From a virus (Duplodnaviria > Caudoviricetes), in IMG/VR virus record IMGVR_UViG_3300025398_000635, positions 1 through 64,000 of that record: 64,000 nt of DNA; one strand, 5' to 3'. Positions 2,178 through 64,000 of the stretch are shown here, piece by piece. How positions within the stretch are numbered: the stretch's first letter is position 1; the number at the start of each line of letters is the position of its first letter. The notes beneath the pieces are model-generated. The model had not been told where the DNA came from and made no database searches. It worked only from the letters and a program-made list of their open reading frames with translations. Made by a program: the position numbers and the translations under genes.

Positions 2178-2449
2178 GATTTATCGCACGAATATGAGTA
2201 CCACCAAATGGTAGCTTTTAACTTACTATTGTATTCACGATCCACTAGGCTTAAATTATCCGGATCTGGATCAAAATTTTTATCTTGTTTGATCTTTTTA
2301 AGATGTGCCAATTGCTGATCGGCTAGCTCACAGCTAACTGGATAGTTAGCTAGAGCTTCGTAGGTTAGTGGTCCGGCCCAGGGGTTTGGACTTTCATGCT
2401 CGTAGCACCCTGCTAGCAGTAGTACTACTAAACACATTGCCAATTTCAT
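2174..2449 (-). CDS. Hypothetical lipoprotein
   Basis: Lipobox LAGC; coupled to neighbours. Confidence 0.55.
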   Translation of the reverse strand: MKLAMCLVVLLLAGCYEHESPNPWAGPLTYEALANYPVSCELADQQLAHLKKIKQDKNFDPDPDNLSLVDREYNSKLKATIWWYSYSCDKS

Positions 2450-2670
2450 TTTACATACTTTCTAATAAGATTCCAGCACTCTTCATTACTAGTATTATAA
2501 AACAATTTGGCTGCGCTGTCAACATCTTGTCCACTTTCTGTTGCAATTTGTTTCCGTATTATGGTCGGACACCAATTGAGAAATGCTTGCCCGACTCGAT
2601 AATCTGGATTACGCATGTACTCCCAATTATAATGTTTGACAAACTCATCAAACTCTTGCGGGCTGAGCAT
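2446..2670 (-). CDS. Hypothetical protein
   Basis: ORF track; tight overlaps with neighbours. Confidence 0.55.
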   Translation of the reverse strand: MLSPQEFDEFVKHYNWEYMRNPDYRVGQAFLNWCPTIIRKQIATESGQDVDSAAKLFYNTSNEECWNLIRKYVK

Positions 2671-2834
2671 TACTGACTAAATTTATAATTGATTCCGGCT
2701 AGAATAAAACTAATGGCAGCACCGGTATAGTCACCTTTGCCTAAATCTTCAAAACCACAAAGGGTTAGCCACCCAATTAGAAACCAAGTAATTTCTGTTT
2801 GATTATTCAAATACCATGATCTAAAGCTATTCAT
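2670..2834 (-). CDS. Small membrane protein, 54 aa
   Basis: Hand translation MNSFRSWYLNNQTEITWFLIGWLTLCGFEDLGKGDYTGAAISFILAGINYKFSQ; fills the gap exactly. Confidence 0.5.
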   Translation of the reverse strand: MNSFRSWYLNNQTEITWFLIGWLTLCGFEDLGKGDYTGAAISFILAGINYKFSQ

Positions 2835-3070
2835 CCTCTTACTCCTGTGTTTGTTATTGTTACTTCGGGTCCTTCACTTTCAAAATCCATTCCGCTGCCT
2901 CTTCCTTCATAGCAACGACCGTTCCATTTTAATTTCAACTTGATTGCCTTGTTAATGATTACATCAAGTTGCTGTTGAAATACAAATTGATCAACAACTG
3001 CTTCAGTTAATTTGGCACTCTTAGCCATTTTAACCTTGCAGGTATTACTGTGGCGAACTATCTGCGACAT
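2831..3070 (-). CDS. Hypothetical protein
   Basis: Likely start MSQIVRH (3070). Confidence 0.5.
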   Translation of the reverse strand: MSQIVRHSNTCKVKMAKSAKLTEAVVDQFVFQQQLDVIINKAIKLKLKWNGRCYEGRGSGMDFESEGPEVTITNTGVRG

Positions 3071-3227
3071 TGCCCGCCTCCAATTCTGCAATGCGATTTT
3101 CAAGAGCATCAATATGATCGGCCATCTGCATTAATAAATTGTTAGTATTTTGACTAGTTGTTCGTAGCATATCTGCCACACTAATTTTTGGTTGTTGTTC
3201 TTCTACAATTTTAATTTCTTCTGACAT
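3045..3227 (-). CDS. Small coiled-coil protein
   Basis: Start MSEEIK after GGAGA RBS; IDALENRIAELE heptads. Confidence 0.5.
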   Translation of the reverse strand: MSEEIKIVEEQQPKISVADMLRTTSQNTNNLLMQMADHIDALENRIAELEAGNVADSSPQ

Positions 3228-3228
3228 T

Positions 3229-4077
3229 TTAAATCTCCAATAAAATATTTGGGTTCCAGCCGCTTTCCTCGTAGCCATCATAGCCGCGTGGATTACATAC
3301 TATTCTAGTAGTACCGATCATGTAGTCAAATGGATAATGCGTATGCCCGTGTGTCCATAATTTAATCTGCGGGTGGTCAAGGATAAATTCATTCAAATCG
3401 CTGTGGTACCCGGCATTCATTATAGTTTCGTGTGCGTACATTTCATGCACACTAGCAAAACTTGGACTATGATGACCAACAACTACATATTTGTTAAATG
3501 GGTTACTTTCTACTACTTCTTTGATATAGGCTTTAGTACGACTGTGTCGGTCCATGATATCGGCAGCCTTAAGCGGACGATATCCAGCATGTTCTACCCG
3601 AATGATTTTAAAATCATTCATCATAGAGGGCAAGGCATGCATAGTCAATGGATCACCTTTATTACAATCAGTCCATAATGTTCCGCCCACAAAAGTAACA
3701 TCGTCAATTACCTTGGTATCACGTTCCAAAAAGTAGATGTTGCTAAATGATTCCTCACACTCCTGTCTTAGGATATCTATAGTTTCCGCCCACTTGCCGT
3801 CATAGAATTCATGATTGCCGGCTATGTAGATAACATGTGGAAATTGGAAGCTACAGCGTTTAAGGAATTCTCTATAACGTAAGGCGGCCTGTTGACGATA
3901 ACTCATACTATCAACCAATGCTTCACCGGCCCACGCCATGCTCACAGGCTTCGCTCGCTTAAGATGATCAGCGACCATGATATCTCCGCCTAGAATAAGG
4001 ACGTCATAGTCGTTGTCATTTTTAATCTGTATGTCAGCAAACTCTAAATGTAGATCGCTGACTAGTTTAATTTTCAT
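3229..4077 (-). CDS. Calcineurin-like metallophosphoesterase
   Basis: SDLH, GGD, GNHE, THH/HH and HGHTH motifs. Confidence 0.85.
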   Translation of the reverse strand: MKIKLVSDLHLEFADIQIKNDNDYDVLILGGDIMVADHLKRAKPVSMAWAGEALVDSMSYRQQAALRYREFLKRCSFQFPHVIYIAGNHEFYDGKWAETIDILRQECEESFSNIYFLERDTKVIDDVTFVGGTLWTDCNKGDPLTMHALPSMMNDFKIIRVEHAGYRPLKAADIMDRHSRTKAYIKEVVESNPFNKYVVVGHHSPSFASVHEMYAHETIMNAGYHSDLNEFILDHPQIKLWTHGHTHYPFDYMIGTTRIVCNPRGYDGYEESGWNPNILLEI

Positions 4078-28276: not shown

Positions 28277-28354
28277 TGGAGGTGCGGGTGAGATTCGAAC
28301 TCACGGTTTTAGGGATTTGCAGTCCCTTGCATTGGGCCTCTCTGCCACCACACC
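28277..28354 (-). tRNA. tRNA-Cys(GCA)
   Basis: Cloverleaf; loop CTGCAAA; encoded CCA. Confidence 0.9.
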
Positions 28355-28944
28355 TTAGGTTTTTTTAATTTTGAATTTATGTTTATTACTATTCTTCTTG
28401 ATGTTGTGTTCGGAGTTGAACTTGAATGATACTGTAGCCCATCAAACCAAACAAAGGTATTTTCCTTTGGAGTAACAGTTTCTTCAACATTGTATACACG
28501 ATCTGATTCGGACTCGTACCAATTGGTAGGTAAAAAATCAATACCATGCCTAAAACGTTCTTTATAAAAGATTGTATCCCCATCTGAATCATTTAGATAA
28601 ATCAATCCAGTCATGTGTGGAACATCCATATCAATGTGGGCTCCATGGACAAATGGGACATCTAATGCAGTAATCATTCCTAATCTAATACGATAAATCA
28701 ATGACAATGTTTGTCCGGTATTATCTAATGCAGATCTCACTGCTAGGTCCACTAGGTCATATAATTCAGATGAAGGGCGACCATCTCCGTATATGTGATG
28801 TACATAACTAAAATTTAAATGTGCATTGTCGGCTGAAGAAGGATAGGCAGTATTAGGAGTAAAGAACCAAGGTATTGAACCAAATACTTCCTGTTTTAAT
28901 CTTTGAAAAATTAATGGTGAAATAGCATCGTGTTTGATATTCAT
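28309..28944 (-). CDS. 2OG-Fe(II) oxygenase; stop codon lies inside tRNA-Cys
   Basis: HID, LIYLNDSDGDT, YHSSSTP, RRIVININ. Confidence 0.7.
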   Translation of the reverse strand: MNIKHDAISPLIFQRLKQEVFGSIPWFFTPNTAYPSSADNAHLNFSYVHHIYGDGRPSSELYDLVDLAVRSALDNTGQTLSLIYRIRLGMITALDVPFVHGAHIDMDVPHMTGLIYLNDSDGDTIFYKERFRHGIDFLPTNWYESESDRVYNVEETVTPKENTFVWFDGLQYHSSSTPNTTSRRIVININSKLKKPKVWWQRGPMQGTANP

Positions 28945-28947
28945 GCA

Positions 28948-29526
28948 TTATCCTAATACGCTGTTAAATGCTATACTGATACGATCATGTCCGCTACGAT
29001 TTGGTTGTGTATAGTGTAACAGCCAACTAGGAAATATAACTAATTTTCCAGCAGTCGGATGTTCACTCCATTCTGCACTATTATAAAAATTATAGTTTTC
29101 AACAACACCATTTGGAATGGTATATACATGTTCAGCTACAGGATTATGCCATTCTAATTGGCCTGCTCCGGGTTCGGCTTTGACATAGAACACTCCTGAG
29201 AAAAAGCAACCAGGATGCTTGTGTGGTTTATTGTAGTGTCCTTCTTGATTGATATTAACCCAAGAGTCCTGGATCACCTGCTTGCAGTTATTTTTAAAGC
29301 CTAACTGCTGATGGAGTCCGTTAACCACTTGATCGATTTGATCGAACAATGGGCTGATAGCCGAGTCATTAGTGTCTAGATAGTGGCTATGATAGCCGCC
29401 TTCGTTACTGACGAACACTCCGGAATCTTGTTGTTGTACGTTATAGCAGTAGTCTTCAATAGACTTAAGATCAACTGTTAAAAAATCAATAAAGATAAAA
29501 CTGCTAAAGATACTTTGTATTTGCAT
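28948..29526 (-). CDS. 2OG-Fe(II) oxygenase (TIGR02466-like)
   Basis: PHKH, SGVFY, FPSWLLH, RISIAFN; start MQIQS. Confidence 0.8.
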   Translation of the reverse strand: MQIQSIFSSFIFIDFLTVDLKSIEDYCYNVQQQDSGVFVSNEGGYHSHYLDTNDSAISPLFDQIDQVVNGLHQQLGFKNNCKQVIQDSWVNINQEGHYNKPHKHPGCFFSGVFYVKAEPGAGQLEWHNPVAEHVYTIPNGVVENYNFYNSAEWSEHPTAGKLVIFPSWLLHYTQPNRSGHDRISIAFNSVLG

Positions 29527-29535
29527 AAAGGTTCC

Positions 29536-29611
29536 TGGTAGGACGTGACGGGTTCGAACCGCCGACATTCACGGTGTAAACGTGACGCTCTACCAACTGA
29601 GCTAACGTCCT
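29536..29611 (-). tRNA. tRNA-Val(TAC)
   Basis: Loop TTTACAC; CCA. Confidence 0.92.
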
Positions 29612-29617
29612 AGATTC

Positions 29618-29851
29618 TTATTTTACTTTTTTAAAGTACTCTTGACCTTCGATCTGGCCATTTTGTAATTCTAGTAGTGCTGTGACAATAGTATGTGTAT
29701 ATTCATACTGAGTACTGGTCTTGTGATGACGACGTAGTTCTCGAGCGCGAGCACTAGCAGCCAAAATCATATCGTACATACCAGTGCCCATAAGACGTAC
29801 ACACTTTTCACGATCAATTTCTGGGCCACGACTTGGAATTAGCTTTTTCAT
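29618..29851 (-). CDS. rpoZ: RNA polymerase omega subunit-like protein
   Basis: YDMILAASARAREL and TIVTALLELQNG match RpoZ conserved regions. Confidence 0.65.
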   Translation of the reverse strand: MKKLIPSRGPEIDREKCVRLMGTGMYDMILAASARARELRRHHKTSTQYEYTHTIVTALLELQNGQIEGQEYFKKVK

Positions 29852-29873
29852 ATAGATCCTTAGTTAAAACATT

Positions 29874-29902
29874 ATTGTAACATCATTACGCCGGAATGTC
29901 AA
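29874..29902 (-). promoter_or_regulatory. Sigma70-like promoter for the rpoZ-like gene
   Basis: TTGACA-17-TACAAT. Confidence 0.75.
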
Positions 29903-30468
29903 ACATATTGTATATCAGCAGCCAAAATAAATCTATAGTCTTTACTTTGTGCAATGCCAGGTCTATGCCATTGATTACTTGGATAAATTAACCAAGAATA
30001 TTCTGTAGGACGTACAAAAAACTTTCCATCACCTTCTGGACCATTTGGTGCCATTTCAGTTCCGCATGTATCACGATCTTCAACATCTGTAGGAATGTGT
30101 AGATAGTATATGCCGCTGATACTGTTACCACCATGTTTGTCATGATGATGCCAGTAGCTATCTCTATTTTCCTGTGTATCTGTATTGGTCATAAAACTCC
30201 AAGCCATCATATTGGAAACCTTGACTTCGTGACCCAGATACATGAACACACTCATTAAAAAACTCATGCGATACTTTAACCAAACTGGTTCTTTACGGGC
30301 AAAGATATTTTCTTTGGTTTGAAATTTTGGGGAATTTTCAAAGTAATTACCGCTGTCAATTATGTCTTTAATAACAAACATAGCCTGCCAGTTGTCATCC
30401 TCTGTAATTATACTAGAGAAATCATACTTTTTAAAAGTATCGTTAGAATCAATTATAGTGTGCATCAA
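29899..30468 (-). CDS. 2OG-Fe(II) oxygenase-like hypothetical protein
   Basis: WHHHD, SGIYYL, WHRPG, RFILAAD. Confidence 0.6.
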   Translation of the reverse strand: MMHTIIDSNDTFKKYDFSSIITEDDNWQAMFVIKDIIDSGNYFENSPKFQTKENIFARKEPVWLKYRMSFLMSVFMYLGHEVKVSNMMAWSFMTNTDTQENRDSYWHHHDKHGGNSISGIYYLHIPTDVEDRDTCGTEMAPNGPEGDGKFFVRPTEYSWLIYPSNQWHRPGIAQSKDYRFILAADIQYV

Positions 30469-30725
30469 GCAGTACGATGGATTAAGTGAAAACCAAACTG
30501 TGTTTGCACAGGCTGGCTAATAGAGCCAACAGGGGTTGCTAGAGTAGCATCTTCAAAAGGCTTAACCATTTGGCCTGGACCAAAATCTCCTAGATCACCG
30601 CCACGAGCTTTGCTTGGGCATGAGCTATGTTGCATGGCCAGTTGACCGAAATTTAAAGGTGTTGCCTGTTCACGTAGTGATGTTGCTTGTTCTAATGTTG
30701 ATACTAAAATATGACTTGCTTTCAT
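30465..30725 (-). CDS. ppiC: Parvulin-type peptidyl-prolyl isomerase
   Basis: ASHILV, SSCPS..GGDLG.F..GQMVKPFE, TQFGFHLI. Confidence 0.92.
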   Translation of the reverse strand: MKASHILVSTLEQATSLREQATPLNFGQLAMQHSSCPSKARGGDLGDFGPGQMVKPFEDATLATPVGSISQPVQTQFGFHLIHRTA

Positions 30726-30748
30726 GTTTTTTCCTTTTTATAAAACTT

Positions 30749-30825
<77 letters not shown>

Positions 30826-30827
30826 AA

Positions 30828-30986
30828 TTATCTGCCTCTACCTGCTGATTTTTTAGCAGGTTTATTAACAATAACTTGATTGCCTCCGGCTGCCTTAGCG
30901 ATGTCGCCCTTATTCTTTTTACTGCTTTGATTTCGACTAGCATTTTTCTTTTCTAATGCCGCTTTCAAAATATCACTAGTTCCCAT
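30828..30986 (-). CDS. Small basic protein, 52 aa
   Basis: Hand translation MGTSDILKAALEKKNASR...KPAKKSAGRGR; AAGGAG RBS. Confidence 0.55.
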   Translation of the reverse strand: MGTSDILKAALEKKNASRNQSSKKNKGDIAKAAGGNQVIVNKPAKKSAGRGR

Positions 30987-30996
30987 ACTATCTCCT

Positions 30997-31070
30997 TGGA
31001 GCGGGATATCGGAATCGAACCGATGACGAAAGATTGGAAATCTTTAGTTTTGCCCCTAAACTAATCCCGC
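30997..31070 (-). tRNA. tRNA-Gly(TCC)
   Basis: Loop TTTCCAA; CCA. Confidence 0.92.
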
Positions 31071-31078
31071 ATAATACT

Positions 31079-31154
31079 TGGTGCCCCTTGTCCGACTCGA
31101 ACAGACCACCTACTGATTACAAATCAGTTGCTCTACCAGATGAGCTAAAGGGGC
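31079..31154 (-). tRNA. tRNA-Thr(TGT)
   Basis: Loop TTTGTAA; CCA. Confidence 0.92.
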
Positions 31155-31162
31155 AAAAATTA

Positions 31163-31396
31163 TTACTCTGCTACTACTTCTTCTACCGCCGACTCCACCA
31201 CTTCTTCTACAACAGCCGGAGCCTTGTAGCTTGGAAGACTTTTCATAAATGCAATTCTGCGTTGGATCATTGCCACGTGCTTTTTACGAGCACCACTTAG
31301 CAATTTTTCTAATTGCTCAATATTCAATGGCCCTAAACGAGTTTTACCGTTACGGGTTAGCATTGTACTTTTTGTTTTTTGTTTTGCGGCTGCCAT
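31163..31396 (-). CDS. Small basic protein with acidic tail
   Basis: ORF track; AAGGA RBS. Confidence 0.55.
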   Translation of the reverse strand: MAAAKQKTKSTMLTRNGKTRLGPLNIEQLEKLLSGARKKHVAMIQRRIAFMKSLPSYKAPAVVEEVVESAVEEVVAE

Positions 31397-31417
31397 AGTG
31401 TTTCCTTATTGTTTATT

Positions 31418-31561
31418 TTACTTAGTTTTAGGCTTTTTGTCTACTGGTCGTTTATGATCTTTTGTTTTTTTATTGCCAAAAATTTTATCCCAATTTTGAT
31501 CAAAAACTTCTTTAGGCACAGTAAATGGTCTTGCCTTACTACCTTTTCCGCCGTCACTCAT
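31418..31561 (-). CDS. Small basic protein, 47 aa
   Basis: MSDGGKGSKARPFTVPKEVFDQNWDKIFGNKK...; GGAGA RBS. Confidence 0.6.
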   Translation of the reverse strand: MSDGGKGSKARPFTVPKEVFDQNWDKIFGNKKTKDHKRPVDKKPKTK

Positions 31562-31573
31562 AATGATCTCCTA

Positions 31574-31960
31574 CTATCTTTTTAATCCTCTTGCTTGTCT
31601 ACCGTTACCTTTGTTTTTAGCAACAAACGTATCTGTTTGACTGTGGCAATTAGGACACATAAGTCTCAAATTCTTTGGAGTGTTATTACTAGCATCTCCG
31701 TCTATATGATCTAATTGTAATGCCAACGGCTGGTTATTGTAAACCCCAGTATTGCCACATTCAACACATTGATATCCAAATAGGTGTTTTAAAATTCGAT
31801 GTAATGTTCTTCTATTAGAAACTTCACCTTTTTTAAATTTGGGCAAAGTTTCGTGTTCTAATTGATAATCTTGTTGACAAGCATTATTACAATACTTGTT
31901 CATATGATTCTTCTTTTTTACATTTTCTTTTTTACAACTAATACATTTAAAATATTCCAT
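31574..31960 (-). CDS. HNH endonuclease with N-terminal Zn-finger
   Basis: LQLDHIDGDASNN..NLRLMCPNCHSQT; CISC..YCNNAC; perfect late TATAAATA at 31978-31985. Confidence 0.88.
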   Translation of the reverse strand: MEYFKCISCKKENVKKKNHMNKYCNNACQQDYQLEHETLPKFKKGEVSNRRTLHRILKHLFGYQCVECGNTGVYNNQPLALQLDHIDGDASNNTPKNLRLMCPNCHSQTDTFVAKNKGNGRQARGLKR

Positions 31961-32012
31961 TATGTAGTCCTCTGTACTATTTATACAGAGCTCTACATTT
32001 TCTACTAATTAA

Positions 32013-32088
32013 TGGTGGAGGTGACAGGACTTGAACCCGCTACCTTGACCTTGCAAAGGTCCTGCTCTACCAGATGAGCTACACCCCC
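32013..32088 (-). tRNA. tRNA-Ala(TGC)
   Basis: Loop TTTGCAA; G3.U70; CCA. Confidence 0.92.
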
Positions 32089-32136
32089 ATTATTCTTAAA
32101 ACACTACATTTAAAACTTGGCTCCCCGTGAATCTAT

Positions 32137-32901
32137 TTAATTTTTTACTAACAAGAATGTTTTAGATGTGGTTTGGACCCCGCCGTATTGGTCATCTATT
32201 ACTTCTAATATTTGGCATCCTGCATCTTCAGCTAATTCATCTATTAACTGTTCTGTAAGGGCATGCATTTCTATAAACGCATCAGTGCCTTTTAACCGAT
32301 GGTATGCTAGATGTTGATCAAGGCTGAATTGATATGGTCCATTTAATTGACTATCAGTTAATATTTGAAAATAAGCAATACCATTAGATTTAAGATTTCC
32401 CAAAGCTACATCTAACGTGTATAGTTGTATAGGTGGTGTATTATGCTGTAAGGTTATTACAGAATAAAAACAATCATAATCAACTATATTCTTAACATCA
32501 GTATATTTTTCTATTAATCTAGTCGATACATTGGTAATACTGTGATTACTAAGATAGTCTTGACATATTGCTAAATTATGCTGATCGATATCTGTCGCTG
32601 TAATACTATCAAAAACAGTGGACAGCTGACTAGTAACACGTCCGACACCGCAACCTAATTCAAAACAATGTCCCGAAGGTGTTAGACCATTACGGTCGCA
32701 TGCTGTTAGAAAATCTTCTAGATAATCTCCGCCAGATTGATAAAACTGTTTTATCTTGTCTTGATCCGACAAACTAATAAATTCGTCTTTGGCCAATACT
32801 GACCAATATGGCAAGTTTTGACTTACAAGACTGTACTGAGTACGAGTTATATCAAATAACTGATTGAGTATCGAATGTGATGCTGTAACATCTATCTTCA
32901 T
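32137..32901 (-). CDS. Class I SAM-dependent methyltransferase
   Basis: FELGCGVGR, ATDID, YSVITLQH, LKSNG. Confidence 0.8.
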   Translation of the reverse strand: MKIDVTASHSILNQLFDITRTQYSLVSQNLPYWSVLAKDEFISLSDQDKIKQFYQSGGDYLEDFLTACDRNGLTPSGHCFELGCGVGRVTSQLSTVFDSITATDIDQHNLAICQDYLSNHSITNVSTRLIEKYTDVKNIVDYDCFYSVITLQHNTPPIQLYTLDVALGNLKSNGIAYFQILTDSQLNGPYQFSLDQHLAYHRLKGTDAFIEMHALTEQLIDELAEDAGCQILEVIDDQYGGVQTTSKTFLLVKN

Positions 32902-32906
32902 AATGC

Positions 32907-32982
32907 TGGCTCCCCAACCAGGACTTGAACCTGGGACCAACAGATTAACAGTCTGCTGCTCTACCGACTGAGCTATCGGGGA
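32907..32982 (-). tRNA. tRNA-Asn(GTT)
   Basis: Loop CTGTTAA; CCA. Confidence 0.93.
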
Positions 32983-32989
32983 ATAATCC

Positions 32990-33193
32990 TTACTCTATTA
33001 CAGTTGCACTTGTACTAGTTTGAGCGTAGTTACCGCCTGGACGCTCTTTCTTAACTGTCTTTGGTACAACTGCCGCATATAATTCTGCTTCAATTAAACA
33101 CTTCTTCCATGCACCGCGCTTATTTTTGTCAGTGAATGTGGCTAATTGTCTTTTTGAATCTTTACTTAGGTTAAACGTCTTACCTGGTTTCAT
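32990..33193 (-). CDS. Small basic hypothetical protein
   Basis: ORF track; AAAGGT RBS. Confidence 0.55.
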   Translation of the reverse strand: MKPGKTFNLSKDSKRQLATFTDKNKRGAWKKCLIEAELYAAVVPKTVKKERPGGNYAQTSTSATVIE

Positions 33194-33214
33194 AATTTAC
33201 CTTTTTTTAAATTT

Positions 33215-33308
33215 TGGCGGAGAACGAGGGATTCGAACCCTCGATACAGGTTTAAGCCCGTATGCCTCCTTAGCAGGGAGGTGCCTTCGACCACTCGGCC
33301 AGCTCTCC
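33215..33308 (-). tRNA. tRNA-Ser(GCT)
   Basis: Loop CTGCTAA; long variable arm; CCA. Confidence 0.93.
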
Positions 33309-33473
33309 GTTATCTTGTTACCTTACGTATTAATTTATACCAATAAAATTTTATACCCCTAAAAGATGGCAGCCAGGAAAAAAAATCAAAATCGCTAGCT
33401 ACTTCTTTCGGGATACTTCCATAGGCCTTGTTTAATGTATCGTCTTGCTTTGACATACGACTTCCTTAGTTAT

Positions 33474-33558
33474 TGGTAGGACTGGGCGGGGTCGAACCGC
33501 CATGGCGTGAGCCGCAGCATTTTAAGTGCTGTGAGTATACCTGTTTCTCCACAGTCCC
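33474..33558 (-). tRNA. tRNA-Leu(TAA)
   Basis: Loop CTTAAAA; long variable arm; CCA. Confidence 0.9.
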
Positions 33559-33562
33559 GTTT

Positions 33563-33871
33563 TTATTTCCACAACTTCAGCAAGTTAATAAACTCGGGGA
33601 AGTCATTATTATAACGTGGACACAAGGCAATAGCAAGCTCTGCATTGTCCATACGGCTTTCAGTAACCACGACGTGATCGCTTAGTTGTTTAATCATAGC
33701 ATACTCTGCAGGCGTTACTGCACATGTTACTTTCTTAAAACTCGAAGCTAGCCAATCATGCATCACAGGTTTATCTTTAAATTCTAAGTAGCACATAAGT
33801 CCTGCATGTGCCGCGGCATTCATTGCCATGCCCGGAGCAGTACCTTCTTTGATACAAATATACATCTTCAT
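33563..33871 (-). CDS. Peptidyl-tRNA hydrolase type II (Pth2-like)
   Basis: KMYICIK...AAAHAG...W....FKKVTC...ES...AIALCPR. Confidence 0.75.
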   Translation of the reverse strand: MKMYICIKEGTAPGMAMNAAAHAGLMCYLEFKDKPVMHDWLASSFKKVTCAVTPAEYAMIKQLSDHVVVTESRMDNAELAIALCPRYNNDFPEFINLLKLWK

Positions 33872-34013
33872 TCTTCAACTCCAAAATGTTGTTTAAACAG
33901 GTCGAGCCGGATACTGTTATCTTTATACACACGAGATACTTCAACACCGTTCTCTACTACGGTGGTCATATCATCCCAGATGATGGTAGCACGATAGTTT
34001 AACTCTGGCTCGT

Positions 34014-34292
34014 TCATTCTTCGAATCCTAAAACTGAAATTTTCTTAACCATATCACCTAACCGTAGTTCCACATATAAACGACGCTCGTCTCCGTTAAA
34101 CATTCCGTCGCTAACTACAGCCGTATTGGCGATTTCATTAAACAATAACTCGGCGAACTTATCCAAGTATTCTTCAGGAGTATAGTTGTCTATCATTTCT
34201 CTGCCACTATCGTCCCATAATGTAAATCCTATACCAGCATCGAGAGCAAGTTTTTTAATCTTCTCGTTCATTGTGTTCTCCGCTTCATCCAA
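34014..34292 (-). CDS. Hypothetical protein
   Basis: ORF track; probable start MNEKIKK. Confidence 0.5.
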   Translation of the reverse strand: MDEAENTMNEKIKKLALDAGIGFTLWDDSGREMIDNYTPEEYLDKFAELLFNEIANTAVVSDGMFNGDERRLYVELRLGDMVKKISVLGFEE

Positions 34293-34495
34293 GTGTAATC
34301 TACGCCATCTGGTGTTTTACCATTAACTACTGCATCTACTCCCGGCTTGCCAATTGAGTTAGGATTTTCACTAACCATTGTGACAAATGTACGGCCTAGT
34401 GACCGATGGAATTGTGTAGCAGATAATGCTACACTCATATCCTCAAACACTTCTGCATGCGGAGTATCGTCTACTGTGTAATATACTTTAAACAT
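34268..34495 (-). CDS. Hypothetical protein
   Basis: ORF track; preceded by ATGACA-17-TATAAT (34501-34529). Confidence 0.55.
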   Translation of the reverse strand: MFKVYYTVDDTPHAEVFEDMSVALSATQFHRSLGRTFVTMVSENPNSIGKPGVDAVVNGKTPDGVDYTWMKRRTQ

Positions 34496-34535
34496 TCTTT
34501 ATTATACTTTCTCTATCTGTGTATGTCATTTTATT

Positions 34536-34611
34536 TGGCGTCCCCCCACGGTGACGATCCGCGCTCTTCGGTTTTGGAGACCGATGTTCTGCCAACATGA
34601 ACTAGGGAGAC
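34536..34611 (-). tRNA. tRNA-Trp(CCA) with non-canonical T-loop
   Basis: Loop CTCCAAA; T-loop ATCGTCA; CCA. Confidence 0.8.
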
Positions 34612-34615
34612 AATT

Positions 34616-34705
34616 TGGCGGAAACGGTGAGATTCGAACTCACGGAGCTTTTACACTCGACAGTTTTCAAGACTGTTGCAATAAACCGGACTCTGCCACA
34701 TTTCC
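34616..34705 (-). tRNA. tRNA-Ser(TGA)
   Basis: Loop CTTGAAA; long variable arm; CCA. Confidence 0.93.
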
Positions 34706-34710
34706 AATAT

Positions 34711-34784
34711 TGGTTGCGGGACCTGGAATCGCACCAGGGACTAGGGCTTATGAGACCCTCGAGATACTCCTTCTCTATCCCGCG
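34711..34784 (-). tRNA. tRNA-Met(CAT), initiator-like
   Basis: C1:A72 mismatch; loop CTCATAA; T-loop TGCGATT. Confidence 0.8.
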
Positions 34785-34789
34785 ATAGA

Positions 34790-34892
34790 TTAGTAACTGT
34801 TATTGTTGTGTCGGGAAACAGTTAAACCCCGTGAGCGCAGCCCATCCTGTTTTCGCGTCAGCGGATGCGGAATATGATTACAGGTCCGCATT
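34790..34892 (-). ncRNA. Candidate structured RNA in the Leu-Met spacer
   Basis: ATGCGGA/TTCCGCAT stem with loop CCTGT complementary to downstream ACAGG; TAACTGTT/AACAGTTA stem. Confidence 0.45.
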
Positions 34893-34898
34893 AAATTT

Positions 34899-34983
34899 TG
34901 GTGCCCCCCAAGGGACTCGAACCCTCACACCTTGCGATACCAGAACCTAAATCTGGCGCGTCTACCAATTTCGCCAAAGGGGC
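34899..34983 (-). tRNA. tRNA-Leu(TAG)
   Basis: Loop TTTAGGT; long variable arm; CCA. Confidence 0.92.
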
Positions 34984-35000
34984 ATGCTTTTACTTATACT

Positions 35001-35213
35001 ATTAGTTGTATTGTCATGTTATGGACTAGGCCCAACCCTAGTCGTTTGCTTTTACTGTCCTATGCTTACTATATGGGATGATCAGTCCGATCTCGTCATA
35101 GTCCAACTCGCGTTAGTTAGTCCACAGTCTAGGACCGTAGCATTTGCCGGCTCTCCCTAACGTTGAAAGTGCATTATGCGATACACGCATTTTTCCATAA
35201 CAATACAACTAAT
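35001..35213 (-). ncRNA. Candidate structured RNA (~210 nt) closed by a long terminal stem
   Basis: Perfect 14-bp inverted repeat 35001-35014/35200-35213, an 8-bp extension and internal hairpins. Confidence 0.55.
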
Positions 35214-35288
35214 GGCGCTCCCAGCGAGATTCGAACTCGCGTACTCACCGTGAAAGGGTGATGTCCTAGGCCTCTAGACGATGGGAGC
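35213..35288 (-). tRNA. tRNA-Glu(TTC)
   Basis: Loop CTTTCAC; CCA. Confidence 0.93.
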
Positions 35289-35332
35289 CATGTACTACTT
35301 GAATTGTTAATGAACTTAACTACTAAACAACT

Positions 35333-35361
35333 ATTATACATATTAGTTAGGTTAATGTCAA
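35333..35361 (-). promoter_or_regulatory. Sigma70 consensus promoter inside the tRNA array
   Basis: TTGACA-17-TATAAT. Confidence 0.85.
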
Positions 35362-35368
35362 CCTTTAT

Positions 35369-35445
35369 TGGCCGGCCCTGAGAGATTCGAACTCCCAACC
35401 GCTGGTTTCGAAGACCAGAACTCTATCCAATTGAGCTAAGGGCCG
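35369..35445 (-). tRNA. tRNA-Arg(TCG)
   Basis: Loop CTTCGAA; CCA. Confidence 0.9.
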
Positions 35446-36022
35446 TTAATTTGAATATGCCCTCAACGCCTGTGCTAGACCATCCGGGATAATCTTCTAA
35501 TTTAAATATTTTTCCTTTACTGTCATTTACACAATCTTCTTTGAGAAGAATGTGTGTATTTAAATTATATTTCTGAATAATATTAAAGAGTGATTCGTAT
35601 CCTAACGGTCTGACACGTACACATATGTCCATAGCGCCACCACACATATAAATGTTATCTATTTGATTATTCTTTATAAACATTTCAAATTCCCACGGAT
35701 AATGCATGGCGATTTGTTGTTTTTTGCTAGACCAATTTAATATAATTTTATCAGTTCTTTGAAATGATTTAGGGTCCACGTTTGCTAATATATTTTTATT
35801 ATTGTATAATTCCTCACCTAATAATTTTAGACTATTAGCATGCCATATTGTATTTGATTCATCGATAGAATCATACGTTGCTAGTATAATAGTTTTAATA
35901 TTGTCATTAGATTCTACAAATTTTTTAATTTTGTTGAACAGGATATAGTCGTAGTCAAATGGAATTTTAAACTTCGACAACCATGTTTCCCAACAATCGA
36001 TTAATATAGCGATATCATTCAT
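35423..36022 (-). CDS. Isochorismatase/cysteine-hydrolase-like protein; stop inside tRNA-Arg
   Basis: IAILIDCW and NIYMCGGAMDICV; start MNDIA. Confidence 0.5.
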   Translation of the reverse strand: MNDIAILIDCWETWLSKFKIPFDYDYILFNKIKKFVESNDNIKTIILATYDSIDESNTIWHANSLKLLGEELYNNKNILANVDPKSFQRTDKIILNWSSKKQQIAMHYPWEFEMFIKNNQIDNIYMCGGAMDICVRVRPLGYESLFNIIQKYNLNTHILLKEDCVNDSKGKIFKLEDYPGWSSTGVEGIFKLTALSSIG

Positions 36023-36043
36023 AATGTTACTTATTAAGAGTAA

Positions 36044-36126
36044 TGGTGCCCCTGACGGGATTCGAACCCGCAACCTAACTGTCTCTTGAACAGCCGCGTC
36101 TTCCTAGTATATTGCGCCACAGGGGC
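36044..36126 (-). tRNA. Atypical tRNA (Leu-like; AAG with C33, or 9-nt loop TTCAAGAGA)
   Basis: Acceptor GCCCCTG/CAGGGGC, T-arm and CCA intact; enlarged D-loop; irregular anticodon loop. Confidence 0.7.
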
Positions 36127-36128
36127 AT

Positions 36129-36223
36129 TGGTAGTAGATAAAGGTTACGATCCTTTCCGTTGCAGCCCATCTGACCACTCTCCCAGGTTTATAAAACCTA
36201 GCCGCACACCAGTGCTATCTACC
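36129..36223 (-). tRNA. Atypical tRNA with TAT (Ile) anticodon
   Basis: Acceptor GGTAGAT/ATCTACT; 4-nt D-loop; loop TTTATAA; 27-nt variable region; T-loop ATCGTAA; CCA. Confidence 0.7.
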
Positions 36224-36231
36224 GTTGTATT

Positions 36232-36308
36232 TGGGGTGGCTGATGGGAATCGAACCCACGAGTATCGGAATCACAATCCGAGGTCTTAACCGCTTGACGA
36301 CAGCCACC
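36232..36308 (-). tRNA. tRNA-His(GTG)
   Basis: G-1:C73; loop TTGTGAT; CCA. Confidence 0.93.
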
Positions 36309-36369
36309 ATTGTGTAGGGCTTCCACCTACTCCCACCTCGCTTTAAAGTCTGCGTGTCCAAGACTTAAT

Positions 36370-36444
36370 TGGTCCGGCTAGGAAGAATCGAACTTCCGTT
36401 ACAAGATTAGAAGTCTCGTGTATTATCCACTATACGATAGCCAG
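36370..36444 (-). tRNA. tRNA-Arg(TCT)
   Basis: Loop CTTCTAA; CCA. Confidence 0.92.
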
Positions 36445-36447
36445 GTT

Positions 36448-36521
36448 TGGCAGGGGATATAAGAATCGAACTTATACTGAGGGAATCAAAATCCCGTGTG
36501 CTACCACTACACCAATCCCCA
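36448..36521 (-). tRNA. tRNA-Gln(TTG)
   Basis: Loop TTTTGAT; 1:72 mismatch; CCA. Confidence 0.9.
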
Positions 36522-36582
36522 ATTGAAATAAAAAACTCCCCGCAGTGTGCTGTCTATGACAAGCAGGGGGAGGTGTGTGTTC

Positions 36583-36978
36583 TTAGTTTAGGGGAAGTCC
36601 TCTTGCGGCTCTTCCGCTACCTTTATTTCTTGCACTAAAAGTATCAGTTTGACTGTGACAATTAGGACATATTAATCTTAAATTACTTGGACTATTATTG
36701 CCAGCATTTCCATCAGTGTGATCGACTTGTAATGTTAACAGTTTGCCATTATGTTCGCTAATCCCACAACAACTACACTTGTATCCGCTGAGTTCTGTCA
36801 GCACTTTCCTAATTGTTTTGCGATCGCTTACTTCACCTCGATTAAATCTATTAATTGTTTCAGTAAACATTCCCTTAGCACTACAGGTATTGCTACAGTA
36901 TACATTCATTTTTTGATGAGACCATTTTGATTCGGTTCCACACGTTTTACAAAGATAAGTTTTGGTAGAGTTATTCAT
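36583..36978 (-). CDS. HNH endonuclease with N-terminal Zn-finger (paralog of 31574)
   Basis: LQVDHTDGNAGNN..NLRLICPNCHSQT; GKG.GR.ARGL-type C-terminus like the paralog; ATAAATA upstream. Confidence 0.88.
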   Translation of the reverse strand: MNNSTKTYLCKTCGTESKWSHQKMNVYCSNTCSAKGMFTETINRFNRGEVSDRKTIRKVLTELSGYKCSCCGISEHNGKLLTLQVDHTDGNAGNNSPSNLRLICPNCHSQTDTFSARNKGSGRAARGLPLN

Positions 36979-37007
36979 ATATTTATTTATCACTCTACCA
37001 AATAAAT

Positions 37008-37081
37008 TGGAGCGGGTAGCGAGAATCGAACTCGCGAATAAACCTTGGCAAGGTTTCAGGTTACCATTACATCATACCCGC
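37008..37081 (-). tRNA. tRNA-Gly(GCC)
   Basis: Loop TTGCCAA; CCA. Confidence 0.92.
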
Positions 37082-37087
37082 ATAAAT

Positions 37088-37337
37088 TGTTATTAGAAAA
37101 GGACCCTGAAAGTTTTGGTCTCCTGAAACGGAAAGACATGGCTGCCCGGACTTACAGATCCGCTTTACTGGTCCAGCAAACGTGGAGCATATATGTCATC
37201 AACAGATTTATGCTGTAATCACTATCTGTCATATTTGACAAGTGTAAAGTTTATAACTTTTGCTAGACTCTCCTTCCGGGATTGTCTATCCACCCTTGCG
37301 GGACACCGTTAATGCCTTGAGTCCTTTACTAATAACA
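37088..37337 (-). ncRNA. Candidate structured RNA (~250 nt)
   Basis: Ends pair (GTTATTAG..AAGGAC / GTCCTT..CTAATAAC); GNRA-capped hairpins CCC-GCAA-GGG and TCCC-GGAA-GGAG; further hairpins. Confidence 0.55.
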
Positions 37338-37360
37338 ACTAGATACTTATACTAATAACA

Positions 37361-37435
37361 TGGTGGTAATGGCTGGATTCGAACCAGCACCTTGCTCCGT
37401 ATGAAGGAGGTGCACGACCATTATGCTACATTACC
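37361..37435 (-). tRNA. tRNA(CAT): elongator Met or Ile2
   Basis: Loop TTCATAC; G1-C72; CCA. Confidence 0.88.
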
Positions 37436-37438
37436 ATT

Positions 37439-37516
37439 TGGTGCCTTGTGGTGGACTCGAACCACCGACCCCTGCGTTATCAACACAGTGCTACTAACCA
37501 ACTGAGCTAACAAGGC
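37439..37516 (-). tRNA. tRNA-Ile(GAT)
   Basis: Loop TTGATAA; CCA. Confidence 0.92.
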
Positions 37517-37520
37517 ATTT

Positions 37521-37597
37521 TGGCGGAACGGACGGGACTCGAACCCGCAACTTCCGCCGTGACAGGGCGGTGCTCTAACCAATTGAACTACCATTCC
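37521..37597 (-). tRNA. tRNA-Asp(GTC)
   Basis: Loop CTGTCAC; CCA. Confidence 0.93.
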
Positions 37598-37603
37598 TAA
37601 TTC

Positions 37604-37687
37604 TGGTGGGCTGTACTGGGATCGAACCAGTCATGCCAGAGGCGTCGGATTTACAGTCCGATGAATCACCATTGATTCTTCCAGCCC
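37604..37687 (-). tRNA. tRNA-Tyr(GTA)
   Basis: Loop CTGTAAA; long variable arm; CCA. Confidence 0.92.
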
Positions 37688-62386: not shown

Positions 62387-62415
62387 ATTATAACAGATTT
62401 AAATTGACATGTCAA
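62387..62415 (-). promoter_or_regulatory. Sigma70 consensus promoter
   Basis: TTGACA-17-TATAAT. Confidence 0.85.
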
Positions 62416-62645
62416 TACATTTTTTTAGGAAGTTGTTGATCGCGGAGTTTTTTCTTCCAACGAGCTTTAGCCGCACCCTTTTTGCGTTTGCGTTCTGTGG
62501 TGGGTTTTTCGTAGGTTTCTTTTTGGCGGAGATCGTCCAATTTACCAGAATCTTCAATTTTACGTTTGAAACGACGTAGGGCCTGATTGATATTTTCACC
62601 GTCTTTAACGGTAATACCAGTTCCTCTACTCTTCTGATGCATCAT
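62412..62645 (-). CDS. rpsU: 30S ribosomal protein bS21
   Basis: ALRRFKRK...[18 protein letters not shown]...QQLPKKMY. Confidence 0.92.
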
Positions 62646-63060
62646 CTTGGTTATCTTCCTCTTGCTGATTCTTTAATTGTTCTACAATCAAGTCTAAATT
62701 ATATATCCGATTTTTACTAATTAAGTGGTACGGAGTGAGTTCATCACCGGTAATATAATGAGTATTTGGTGCAGACAGCAACAAAGTAATGAATTTTTGG
62801 GTAATAGGATCACAATTATCAACATCGACGATTACACAATCTACCTGTTGAGCAACACTGAGCATCCAGCTGATATCCGAATCATCTTGATCAAAAATAA
62901 ACACATTAAGATCTTCTATGCTTTGGCTAAGAATTGTCTGAAACTGTTCTTTAACTAATTGGCTTGGTTTTATCAAAAGATATGCCAAGTTCATGTTGAA
63001 CAATCTATCAGGCGGTGTTATTAGAGTTATTTTTCCTAAGTTCATGTATACGCTCTTCAA
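62626..63060 (-). CDS. Hypothetical protein
   Basis: ITLITPPD; ORF track. Confidence 0.55.
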
Positions 63061-63337
63061 AGTATTCTATTTTTTCCATCGGATAGTCACTAAATCTAGG
63101 ACCATGCAATTTTGTCTCTTTTACAAATGCTGCCAATTCTGGTTCAGTTTTTTCATCAACATTAAAATCTGTAAATTGATGATCACCATATTCCTTGTAC
63201 AACTGATCAATGGGTTGTAATCCTATTATTTTACTCCAAATACTACCTGTACCTTGTTCTTGATTTTGTATATAGCCTATGTTCGATTCTTGGTAATCAG
63301 ATTCCCTTCCGAGTCCTTGATCATGTAAGTCTTTTTT
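63008..63337 (-). other. -1 frame extension reachable through an A_AAA_AAG slippery site
   Basis: -1 frame open from the TGA just before the A9G run (63331-63340) to TGA at 63008; no ATG in its first ~80 codons. Confidence 0.55.
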
Positions 63338-64000
63338 TTTGATTCATCGACAGGAAGATCGATGTCAGGGACAGCTAACTGAGGTTCTTCGATTTCAGCT
63401 TCTTCCAATGCTGAAATTTCATTACCTTCGTTATCAATATAAGTTTCGCCTTTAGCCACACGTTCTTCTACTGTAGTTTCCTGTGATTTGGCCACTTCGC
63501 GTTCCGCCTCTTCAATCATTTTATTCCAACGATCGAGTTCAGTCTCTTCTTCAATTTCAGGAGTATCTGTAACGATTGTTTGTTCTCCAATTTGAACCAG
63601 CTGATCAGCAGTTAGCTCTGTATCAGTTTGTTCATCTTGAGATTCTTGTTTCTTATCCCAGAATCGGGCTTTCTCTTTAGCACGAGTAAACCATTCGCTA
63701 ACAGTAGTATCGTTAAATGCCTCAGTTAATTCATCGGCTTGGTCATCTAACCATGTATGTTCTTTTTCTTCTTTAGCCCAAGCAAAGGACATCTGTGCCG
63801 CCAACAGCATAATAACTGCCAGTGGATCGAACACAATAACAATCATAATAATAACCCAGGTCACTGCTTTTTCTAGTATCGTAGCATCGGGATTAACACC
63901 GTAGATCAGTGCGGCAATATATTTGATTGGTCCGACTTCTGCTTCTACCTTACGTAGATCCTTAGCAATAGGAGCACGTTCTTCGTTTAATGAAGCGATT
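63277..64000 (-). CDS. Coiled-coil membrane protein with acidic C-terminal region (5' part outside window)
   Basis: Frame open to the window edge: ...EVGPIKYIAALIYG...VIIMIVIVFDPLAVIMLLAAQ. Confidence 0.7.
   Translation of the reverse strand, partial: IASLNEERAPIAKDLRKVEAEVGPIKYIAALIYGVNPDATILEKAVTWVIIMIVIVFDPLAVIMLLAAQMSFAWAKEEKEHTWLDDQADELTEAFNDTTVSEWFTRAKEKARFWDKKQESQDEQTDTELTADQLVQIGEQTIVTDTPEIEEETELDRWNKMIEEAEREVAKSQETTVEERVAKGETYIDNEGNEISALEEAEIEEPQLAVPDIDLPVDESKKKTYMIKDSEGNLITKNRT

Follow-up and report, generated by a model that had tools for sequence, protein, structure and literature searches.

We analyzed a candidate recoding site in a 64,000-nucleotide stretch of viral DNA (Duplodnaviria; Caudoviricetes), hereafter called the window, which comprises bases 1–64000 of the 73,665-bp IMG/VR virus record IMGVR_UViG_3300025398_000635. 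The site is a run of nine adenines followed by guanine (A9G) near the 3′ end of a gene encoding a membrane/coiled-coil protein of 415 amino acids (aa). Comparison with relatives indicates, with a probability of roughly 0.87, that this tract is a conserved programmed recoding site yielding two C-termini of the protein. Standard expression would give the 415-aa short isoform, ending in a conserved 17-residue tail (the TYM tail). Some expression events would instead shift into the -1 frame within the A run, and the resulting long isoform of 505 aa would carry, in place of the TYM tail, a variable linker, the motif GY[VI]QNxEQ..W, and a three-helix domain. We infer the production of both isoforms, its mechanism, and the isoform ratio from sequence comparison. 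The completeness of the virus record was judged to be ~20%, which, at a length of 73,665 bp, makes the virus a jumbo phage.

The recoding feature was located on the minus strand, where the junction is gat gaa tcA AAA AAA AAG act tac atg, with the A9 run at positions 63332–63340, the G at 63331, and the heptamer A_AAA_AAG at 63331–63337. The gene is truncated by the window end; its full open reading frame (ORF) of 415 aa extends to base 64524 of the record. An earlier note on this DNA, made from the letters alone, had recognized A9G and both reading frames correctly, but the strand (minus) and the gene end (outside the window) needed correcting. The 0 frame reads ...DESKKKTYMIKDSEGNLITKNRT and is terminated by TAG 63277–63279, 17 codons past A9G, so that its tail is TYMIKDSEGNLITKNRT. 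The -1 frame is closed by TGA 63344–63346, one codon (ATC) ahead of its first AAA. From this TGA it is open for 111 codons, down to TGA 63008–63010; 107 of these codons lie beyond the shift. Its first ATG is codon 90, in agreement with the earlier statement that ATG is absent from the first ~80 codons, and its first TTG is at 63202, where a TTG-started ORF of 64 aa (63008–63202) begins. The features of the locus are as follows.

63277..64000, minus strand: 3′ part of the gene for the 415-aa membrane/coiled-coil protein, 0 frame (ORF listing, AlphaFold model, relatives in 217 IMG/VR stretches).
63331..63340, minus strand: putative recoding tract A9G, tcA AAA AAA AAG (conserved in relatives).
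63280..63330, minus strand: 0-frame tail of the predicted short isoform, TYMIKDSEGNLITKNRT, a dual-coding overlap with the -1 frame (family consensus).
63344..63346, minus strand: TGA of the -1 frame, just upstream of the A run (sequence).
63011..63331, minus strand: -1 extension of the predicted long isoform, 107 codons, DLHDQG...NNTA, with the stop TGA at 63008–63010 (relatives found by tblastn).
63236..63277, minus strand: invariant motif GY[VI]QNxEQ....[LI]W in the -1 frame, its first codon overlapping the 0-frame TAG (alignment).
63023..63214, minus strand: small three-helix domain ending the predicted long isoform (AlphaFold).
62626..63045, minus strand: next gene, ~139 aa, its first 12 codons overlapping the end of the -1 extension (same position in relatives).

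The A9 run in the single genome was not beyond chance. One A9/T9 run was found in the 64-kb window versus 4.6 expected, and AAAAAAG occurred 23 times with 23 occurrences expected. The significance of the tract comes entirely from its conservation among relatives.

The 415-aa protein, used as a query, had relatives in 217 IMG/VR stretches. The best 80 of the 217 were kept, and their deduplication left 69 different junction sequences with ~45–70% protein identity. A run of 8–10 adenines was present in 69 of the 69 unique junctions, never shorter than 8, and its length was exactly nine in 61 of them. Sixty of the 69 junctions conformed to nCA AAA AAA AAG ACN TAY ATG with A9 in one and the same register, preceded by the codon TCA in 57 of these, CCA in 2, and GCA in 1. 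The exceptions were TCT followed by A8 (three junctions), TCT followed by A10 and C (one), A9 followed by C and shifted by one position (one), and A10 with the frames swapped (four). The C ahead of the run was invariant across serine, proline, and alanine codons. Serine before the run was encoded by TCA in 57 cases versus TCT in 4, although TCA accounts for 25% of serine codons in the family. The three As upstream of the heptamer, which include a four-fold degenerate position, were conserved as well. As these synonymous sites indicate, the run is conserved at the nucleotide level beyond the requirement of the protein. The -1 frame opened 2–27 codons before the end of the run in the relatives. 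A divergent branch (L102, L103, L105, and L106) also keeps the run as ctA AAA AAA AAG (A9 at ~4419, 3038, 3789, and 4386, respectively). Its 0-frame tail is KKKDLTYLEKxGxxQ[IV]QKxLK, and its -1 extension starts with ..SYHQNSEQ..IW but then leads into another C-terminal domain.

When 2.9 million viral contigs were scanned for the exact pattern C-A9-GACNTAYATGA and its A10 and A8 variants, 115 contigs had A9 and one had A10, all with the same flanks. The single match to the A8 pattern (L253) was unrelated DNA. The earlier note had considered that the run might be an assembly error hiding A8 or A10. Homopolymers are indeed error-prone in some sequencing chemistries; however, the same A9 was present in 115 independently assembled contigs originating from many samples, both frames are conserved, and synonymous codons creating stops are avoided. 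An assembly or sequencing error, like a recent pseudogene, can thus be regarded as already refuted. Another possibility is variation at the DNA level, in which the length of the homopolymer changes during replication and individual phages are genetically of the short or of the long form. Sporadic A10 genotypes among A9 relatives (L011/P0001, P0003, and P0005) could be read in this way, but the A9 to A10 ratio in the assembled genomes and the purifying selection on the 0-frame tail behind A9 make such phase variation very improbable. Since A9 is kept in more than 100 contigs, the tract is neither an assembly artefact nor a hypervariable DNA tract.

Both frames downstream of the run bear the marks of coding sequence. 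In the family, the consensus of the 0-frame tail is KKKTYM[IT]K[DN]xxGQIQ[IV]KNR followed by a stop, with K396–398, Y400, and K403 invariant. For the -1 protein, tblastn found relatives at 50 IMG/VR loci with 42–100% identity; 13 columns of the extension are invariant, including Y20, Q22, N23, E25, Q26, and W32. In ~10 relatives the -1 extension is merely 36–42 codons long and ends just past the GY[VI]QN motif; this motif is therefore the core of what the shift would add. Within the overlap, variable nucleotides were mostly third positions of the 0 frame, and downstream of the 0-frame stop the -1 frame varied most at its third positions. When the 0-frame tail was recoded synonymously with the codon usage of the family, the -1 frame stayed open in ~10% of trials (4–27% per sequence) versus 60 of the 60 real canonical sequences. 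The fourth codon past the run was ATT or ACT in 0 of 59 cases; either would introduce a TAA into the -1 frame. Yet in the family ATT makes up 50% of isoleucine codons and ACT 37% of threonine codons. Conservation of the slippery run and of both frames in homologues, which the earlier note had suggested as a check, was thus observed across the 69 junctions, and its proposal that a -1 shift at A9G yields a short and a long isoform of a membrane protein is supported by the conserved run and the dual coding. The note had also pointed out that A9 allows slippage during transcription.

An alternative is that two independent genes are present and the A run is incidental, the downstream frame being translated from a start of its own, such as TTG 63202, which the earlier note had considered. 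The 64-aa ORF starting with this TTG does exist, and the helical domain lies downstream of it. Conservation of the protein, however, begins at the A run. In 56 of 58 relatives neither ATG, GTG, nor TTG was found in the -1 frame between the upstream stop and the Y[VI]QN motif; therefore, the motif (GY[VI]QNxEQ..W) cannot be reached by separate initiation in these relatives. Moreover, relatives with a short extension keep the motif alone, and in-frame fusions exist. Two separate genes are accordingly about as improbable as phase variation.

The -1 extension and the next gene share positions 63011–63045 (minus strand), where the final 12 codons of the former overlap the start of the latter, and both readings are conserved in relatives. 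This overlap is part of the reason why the terminal ELRKNNSNN of the extension is conserved. By analogy with Shigella spa13/spa32, there may be coupling between long-isoform translation and initiation of the next gene.

A search for longer proteins containing the extension resulted in seven clusters. Four of them, P0001 (contig L011), P0003, P0005, and P0006 (contig L134), are fused at KKK|DL[HY], which is the sequence that one extra A would yield; L134 has TCT followed by A9, and the L011 contig has A10. Clusters P0002 (13 sequences from six contigs) and P0004 have the same gene order without the A run, and the TYM motif is followed by the GYVQN domain in frame within one ORF. Such unsplit orthologues are encoded in L132 (1501–3036) and L133 (1501–3093) by a single ORF of 511 aa or 530 aa. 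In P0007 (L048) the acidic region is joined directly to the helical domain. The in-frame fusions and unsplit orthologues mean that the extension belongs to the membrane protein.

A10 genotypes reading straight into the extension comprise L011/P0001, P0003, P0005, and a clade of L120–124 together with L130. In the distant clade L120–124 (five contigs) and in L130 the run is cAA AAA AAA AAc/t, that is, A10 in a different register (~4340–4349 in L120–L124 and ~4268–4277 in L130). Compared with the window, the two frames have changed places here: the genomic frame enters an extension of the short type, and the +1 frame holds a TYM-like tail. In a midpoint-rooted FastTree phylogeny of the N-terminal domain, built with neither outgroup nor support values, the unsplit orthologues were placed inside the canonical clade. 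On the evidence of these variants, the split is one of several arrangements tried within the family.

Addition of one A by the polymerase and a ribosomal -1 slip would result in an identical junction, ...ESKKK|DLHDQ.... We slightly favour polymerase slippage as the main route: RNA polymerase would add one A on A9, and the A10 mRNA would be translated normally. A ribosomal -1 slip at the embedded A_AAA_AAG would be the other or an additional route, and both may contribute. In vivo, nine consecutive A or T residues cause efficient slippage of bacterial RNA polymerase (PMC5009743), and the length of A9 matches the RNA–DNA hybrid of 9–10 bp. Some relatives have C or T instead of the G yet retain a run of at least nine, and the A run persists in the frame-swapped lineages as well. 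The evidence from the swapped lineages is weaker than it seems, because their +1 frame would stay open by chance.

Several observations weigh against this preference. A_AAA_AAG in register is the most shift-prone -1 heptamer of bacteria, and either A_AAA_AAG or A_AAA_AAA stands in the 0-frame register in every canonical relative. The G after the run was invariant in 45 aligned canonical sequences, which fits ribosomal frameshifting at least as well as it fits a limit on the run length. Finally, A9 amounts to two overlapping heptamers plus a conserved KKK, and the run length is therefore not decisive. Purely ribosomal programmed -1 frameshifting of the dnaX or insertion sequence (IS) type, with little polymerase slippage, is accordingly a serious contender, although the less probable one. 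It would not require elaborate signals, as frameshifts of the phage lambda G/GT type work with a bare heptamer (PMC5009743). On the other hand, conservation of the three As upstream of the heptamer, including the one at the four-fold degenerate site, speaks against a purely ribosomal site; in the A10 lineages a -1 shift would reach a stop after 0–3 codons; and any A9 run is expected to slip under bacterial RNA polymerase (PMC5009743).

Neither a downstream hairpin nor an upstream Shine–Dalgarno (SD)-like element was conserved, which also argues against a purely ribosomal site. We failed to find conserved RNA structure near the run: RNAalifold on 45 junctions predicted 0 pairs, and the mean minimum free energy downstream was -6.77 versus -6.81 for shuffled sequences (59 relatives). 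Folding of single sequences was equally negative. In the window, the search for a stem-loop or pseudoknot, expected 5–9 nt downstream of the heptamer, gave a z-score of +0.94; such a structure is common but not obligatory for -1 sites. An SD-like 4-mer 5–18 nt upstream was present in merely 6 of 60 sequences and is likewise not obligatory. The absence of a convincing stimulatory hairpin, reported in the earlier note, was borne out in the relatives. A nascent-RNA hairpin just before an A run could stimulate polymerase slippage. A 7-bp hairpin of this kind, CAUCGAU...GUCGAUG (63345–63364, minus strand), is located 4 nt before the run in the window but was rejected as not conserved (mean z-score +0.22; below -2 in 4 of 60 sequences).

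Neither this gene family nor any recoding in it was described in the literature that we searched. Among known systems, tau and gamma of Thermus thermophilus dnaX are produced by transcriptional slippage on nine A/T residues (PMC5009743). The A9G site resembles it in the nine-base homopolymer within the coding region, in the two C-terminal variants, in the lack of need for an RNA stimulator, and in the rapid closure of the other shifted frame (here, insertion of two As leads to KKKRLT and a stop in all canonical members). The genomic frame of Thermus dnaX, however, encodes the long product and slippage truncates it, whereas in the phage family the genomic frame mostly encodes the short form and slippage would extend it by ~107 residues; the gene family is also different and belongs to phages. 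Transcriptional frameshifting on A11 is known for tssM1 of Citrobacter rodentium and tssM of Yersinia pseudotuberculosis (PMC4256274). As in these, a gene for an inner-membrane protein is interrupted just past poly-A, and slippage would add a C-terminal domain, resulting in two lengths. Unlike tssM, a bacterial secretion gene in which the interruption is rescued in a few strains, the phage gene is split in more than 100 contigs and its short form has a conserved tail of its own. In Shigella flexneri spa13, transcriptional slippage provides a C-terminal extension of 112 aa which overlaps the next gene (PMC5009743); the extension in the phage family is similar in length (~110 aa), and its end overlaps the start of the next gene (63011–63045 in the window), although spa13 is a type III secretion gene and the phage membrane protein is of an unrelated family.

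E. coli dnaX and IS911-type elements use -1 frameshifting at A_AAA_AAG (PMC5009743, PMC4066793). The heptamer in the window is identical and in register and would involve the same lysine–lysine shift; in contrast to these systems, which have an SD-like element and a hairpin or pseudoknot and do not need nine As, no conserved stimulator was found. Phage lambda G/GT (PMC5009743) is likewise recoded across many phages into a short and a C-terminally extended product without elaborate stimulators, and the lambda ratio is fixed; it encodes a tail chaperone, uses a different slippery sequence, and has been shown to be ribosomal, whereas the gene considered here encodes a membrane protein. Paramyxovirus P/V editing (PMC5009743) offers a parallel in that lineages differ in which product is unedited, just as A9 and A10 lineages of the phage family swap tails. 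It differs in the polymerase, that of an RNA virus, and in the use of a G run instead of an A run; in the phages, use of the alternative tail by the swapped lineages is hypothetical.

An AlphaFold model of the 415-aa protein, built from 45 relatives, had N-terminal transmembrane (TM) helices, an antiparallel coiled-coil hairpin (64–141 and 145–208; predicted local distance difference test (pLDDT) score >90), a further TM helix (214–255), and then an acidic, poorly ordered region. The protein has four TM helices, and the long coiled-coil hairpin connects TM3 to TM4. The loop preceding TM3 is positively charged, and the positive-inside rule would thus place the coiled coil in the periplasm and the C-terminus in the cytoplasm; the isoforms would therefore differ on the cytoplasmic side. 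Two similar beta-hairpins were modelled, ETYIDNEGNEI (361–371) and the TYM tail (400–412). At the sequence level the TYM tail TYMIKDSEGNLIT (63280–63330) repeats the upstream motif ETYIDNEGNEI (63400–63440, minus strand), and the -1 frame may contain a third, degenerate copy of this repeat in its GYVQN motif. The AlphaFold model of the extension was disordered through GYVQN and contained helices at 40–51, 64–76, and 85–103 (pLDDT 73–80).

Profile searches against PDB and Foldseek searches with both models returned generic coiled-coil or helical matches alone (E > 0.09). Pfam and PHROG were searched with both frames, with the full protein, and with its neighbours, and the recoded gene was assigned to no family; holin and spanin families in these databases gave no match to its protein. 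DUF4407 (PF14362) matched residues 105–242 with 19.2 bits (E 7.9e-4), below its gathering cut-off of 31.3 bits; one neighbour cluster in the ESM Atlas is automatically named DUF4407, and the architecture is similar, but this is a lead at most. Tetraspanin (PF00335; cut-off 32.1) scored 32.3 bits with the window protein and 13.3 bits with the L087 orthologue, which probably reflects TM composition. In tblastn searches against cultured phages only the N-terminal membrane/coiled-coil part was matched (Mosig, XacN1, Xoo-sp13, RsoM2USA, SCTP-2, and huge phages), and the extension had no match in these phages.

The recoded gene has a conserved neighbourhood in the order endolysin (Hydrolase_2, phrog_938), small membrane protein, protein of 200–230 aa, recoded gene, protein of ~140 aa, ribosomal protein bS21, exonuclease, and MazG. 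The endolysin gene is located two genes upstream in the same orientation, with the small membrane protein between, and this is also the case in L132 and L133. In Pelagibacter phage Mosig the N-terminal homologue adjoins a glucosaminidase gene and comes after it. A lysis or envelope-handling role is our best guess from this neighbourhood and is tentative. In L136 a Hydrolase_2 endolysin (233 aa, phrog_938) followed by a 117-aa protein is encoded at 2248–3311 (minus strand), i.e., at 65247–66310 of the record, just upstream of the recoded gene. The 117-aa protein has hydrophobic membrane-like stretches and is a holin candidate; the two genes possibly form a lysis cassette.

Polymerase stuttering might even act as a long-kept switch working both ways. 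Some clades would have the TYM tail in the genomic frame (A9) and others the GYVQN extension (A10), each reaching the other product by stuttering as in paramyxovirus P/V, and the isoform ratio would set when, or how far, an envelope or lysis function proceeds, much as in holin/antiholin pairs. We consider this version unlikely. The swapped lineages are no proof that the alternative tail is used, because their +1 frame stays open by chance (P 0.8–1.0), which renders the test of tail selection uninformative.

The bS21 gene (62412–62645, minus strand; 77 aa, phrog_21469, E 3e-16) is located two genes downstream of the recoded gene and has the same position in relatives (PF01165 in L132–L134). A phage tRNA array at 28277–37687 (minus strand) comprises 24 tRNAs for 18 amino acids, with none for lysine or phenylalanine within the window, and may extend beyond it. 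Lysine and phenylalanine codons form the most slippery homopolymers. Outside the window, a NUMOD3 homing-endonuclease-like gene is inserted between the genes for the large and small subunits of ribonucleotide reductase (L136: 6946–7554, minus strand, or 69945–70553 of the record), and a NUMOD3 gene also lies next to bS21 in L132.

Regarding annotation, the start-less frame of 111 codons should be corrected to a part of the membrane protein gene; it is neither a separate nor a missing gene. Conserved recoding in phages has rarely been documented outside the tail chaperone, capsid, and T4 gene 60, and gene callers split or truncate such genes. In this family one slippery tract is present in more than 100 contigs of a widespread freshwater jumbo-phage group, in the gene of a conserved membrane protein near the endolysin. 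Because the family holds natural controls—fused, swapped, and unsplit forms—it would be a good system for studying why a fixed isoform ratio is selected and how slippage by the polymerase compares with slippage by the ribosome.

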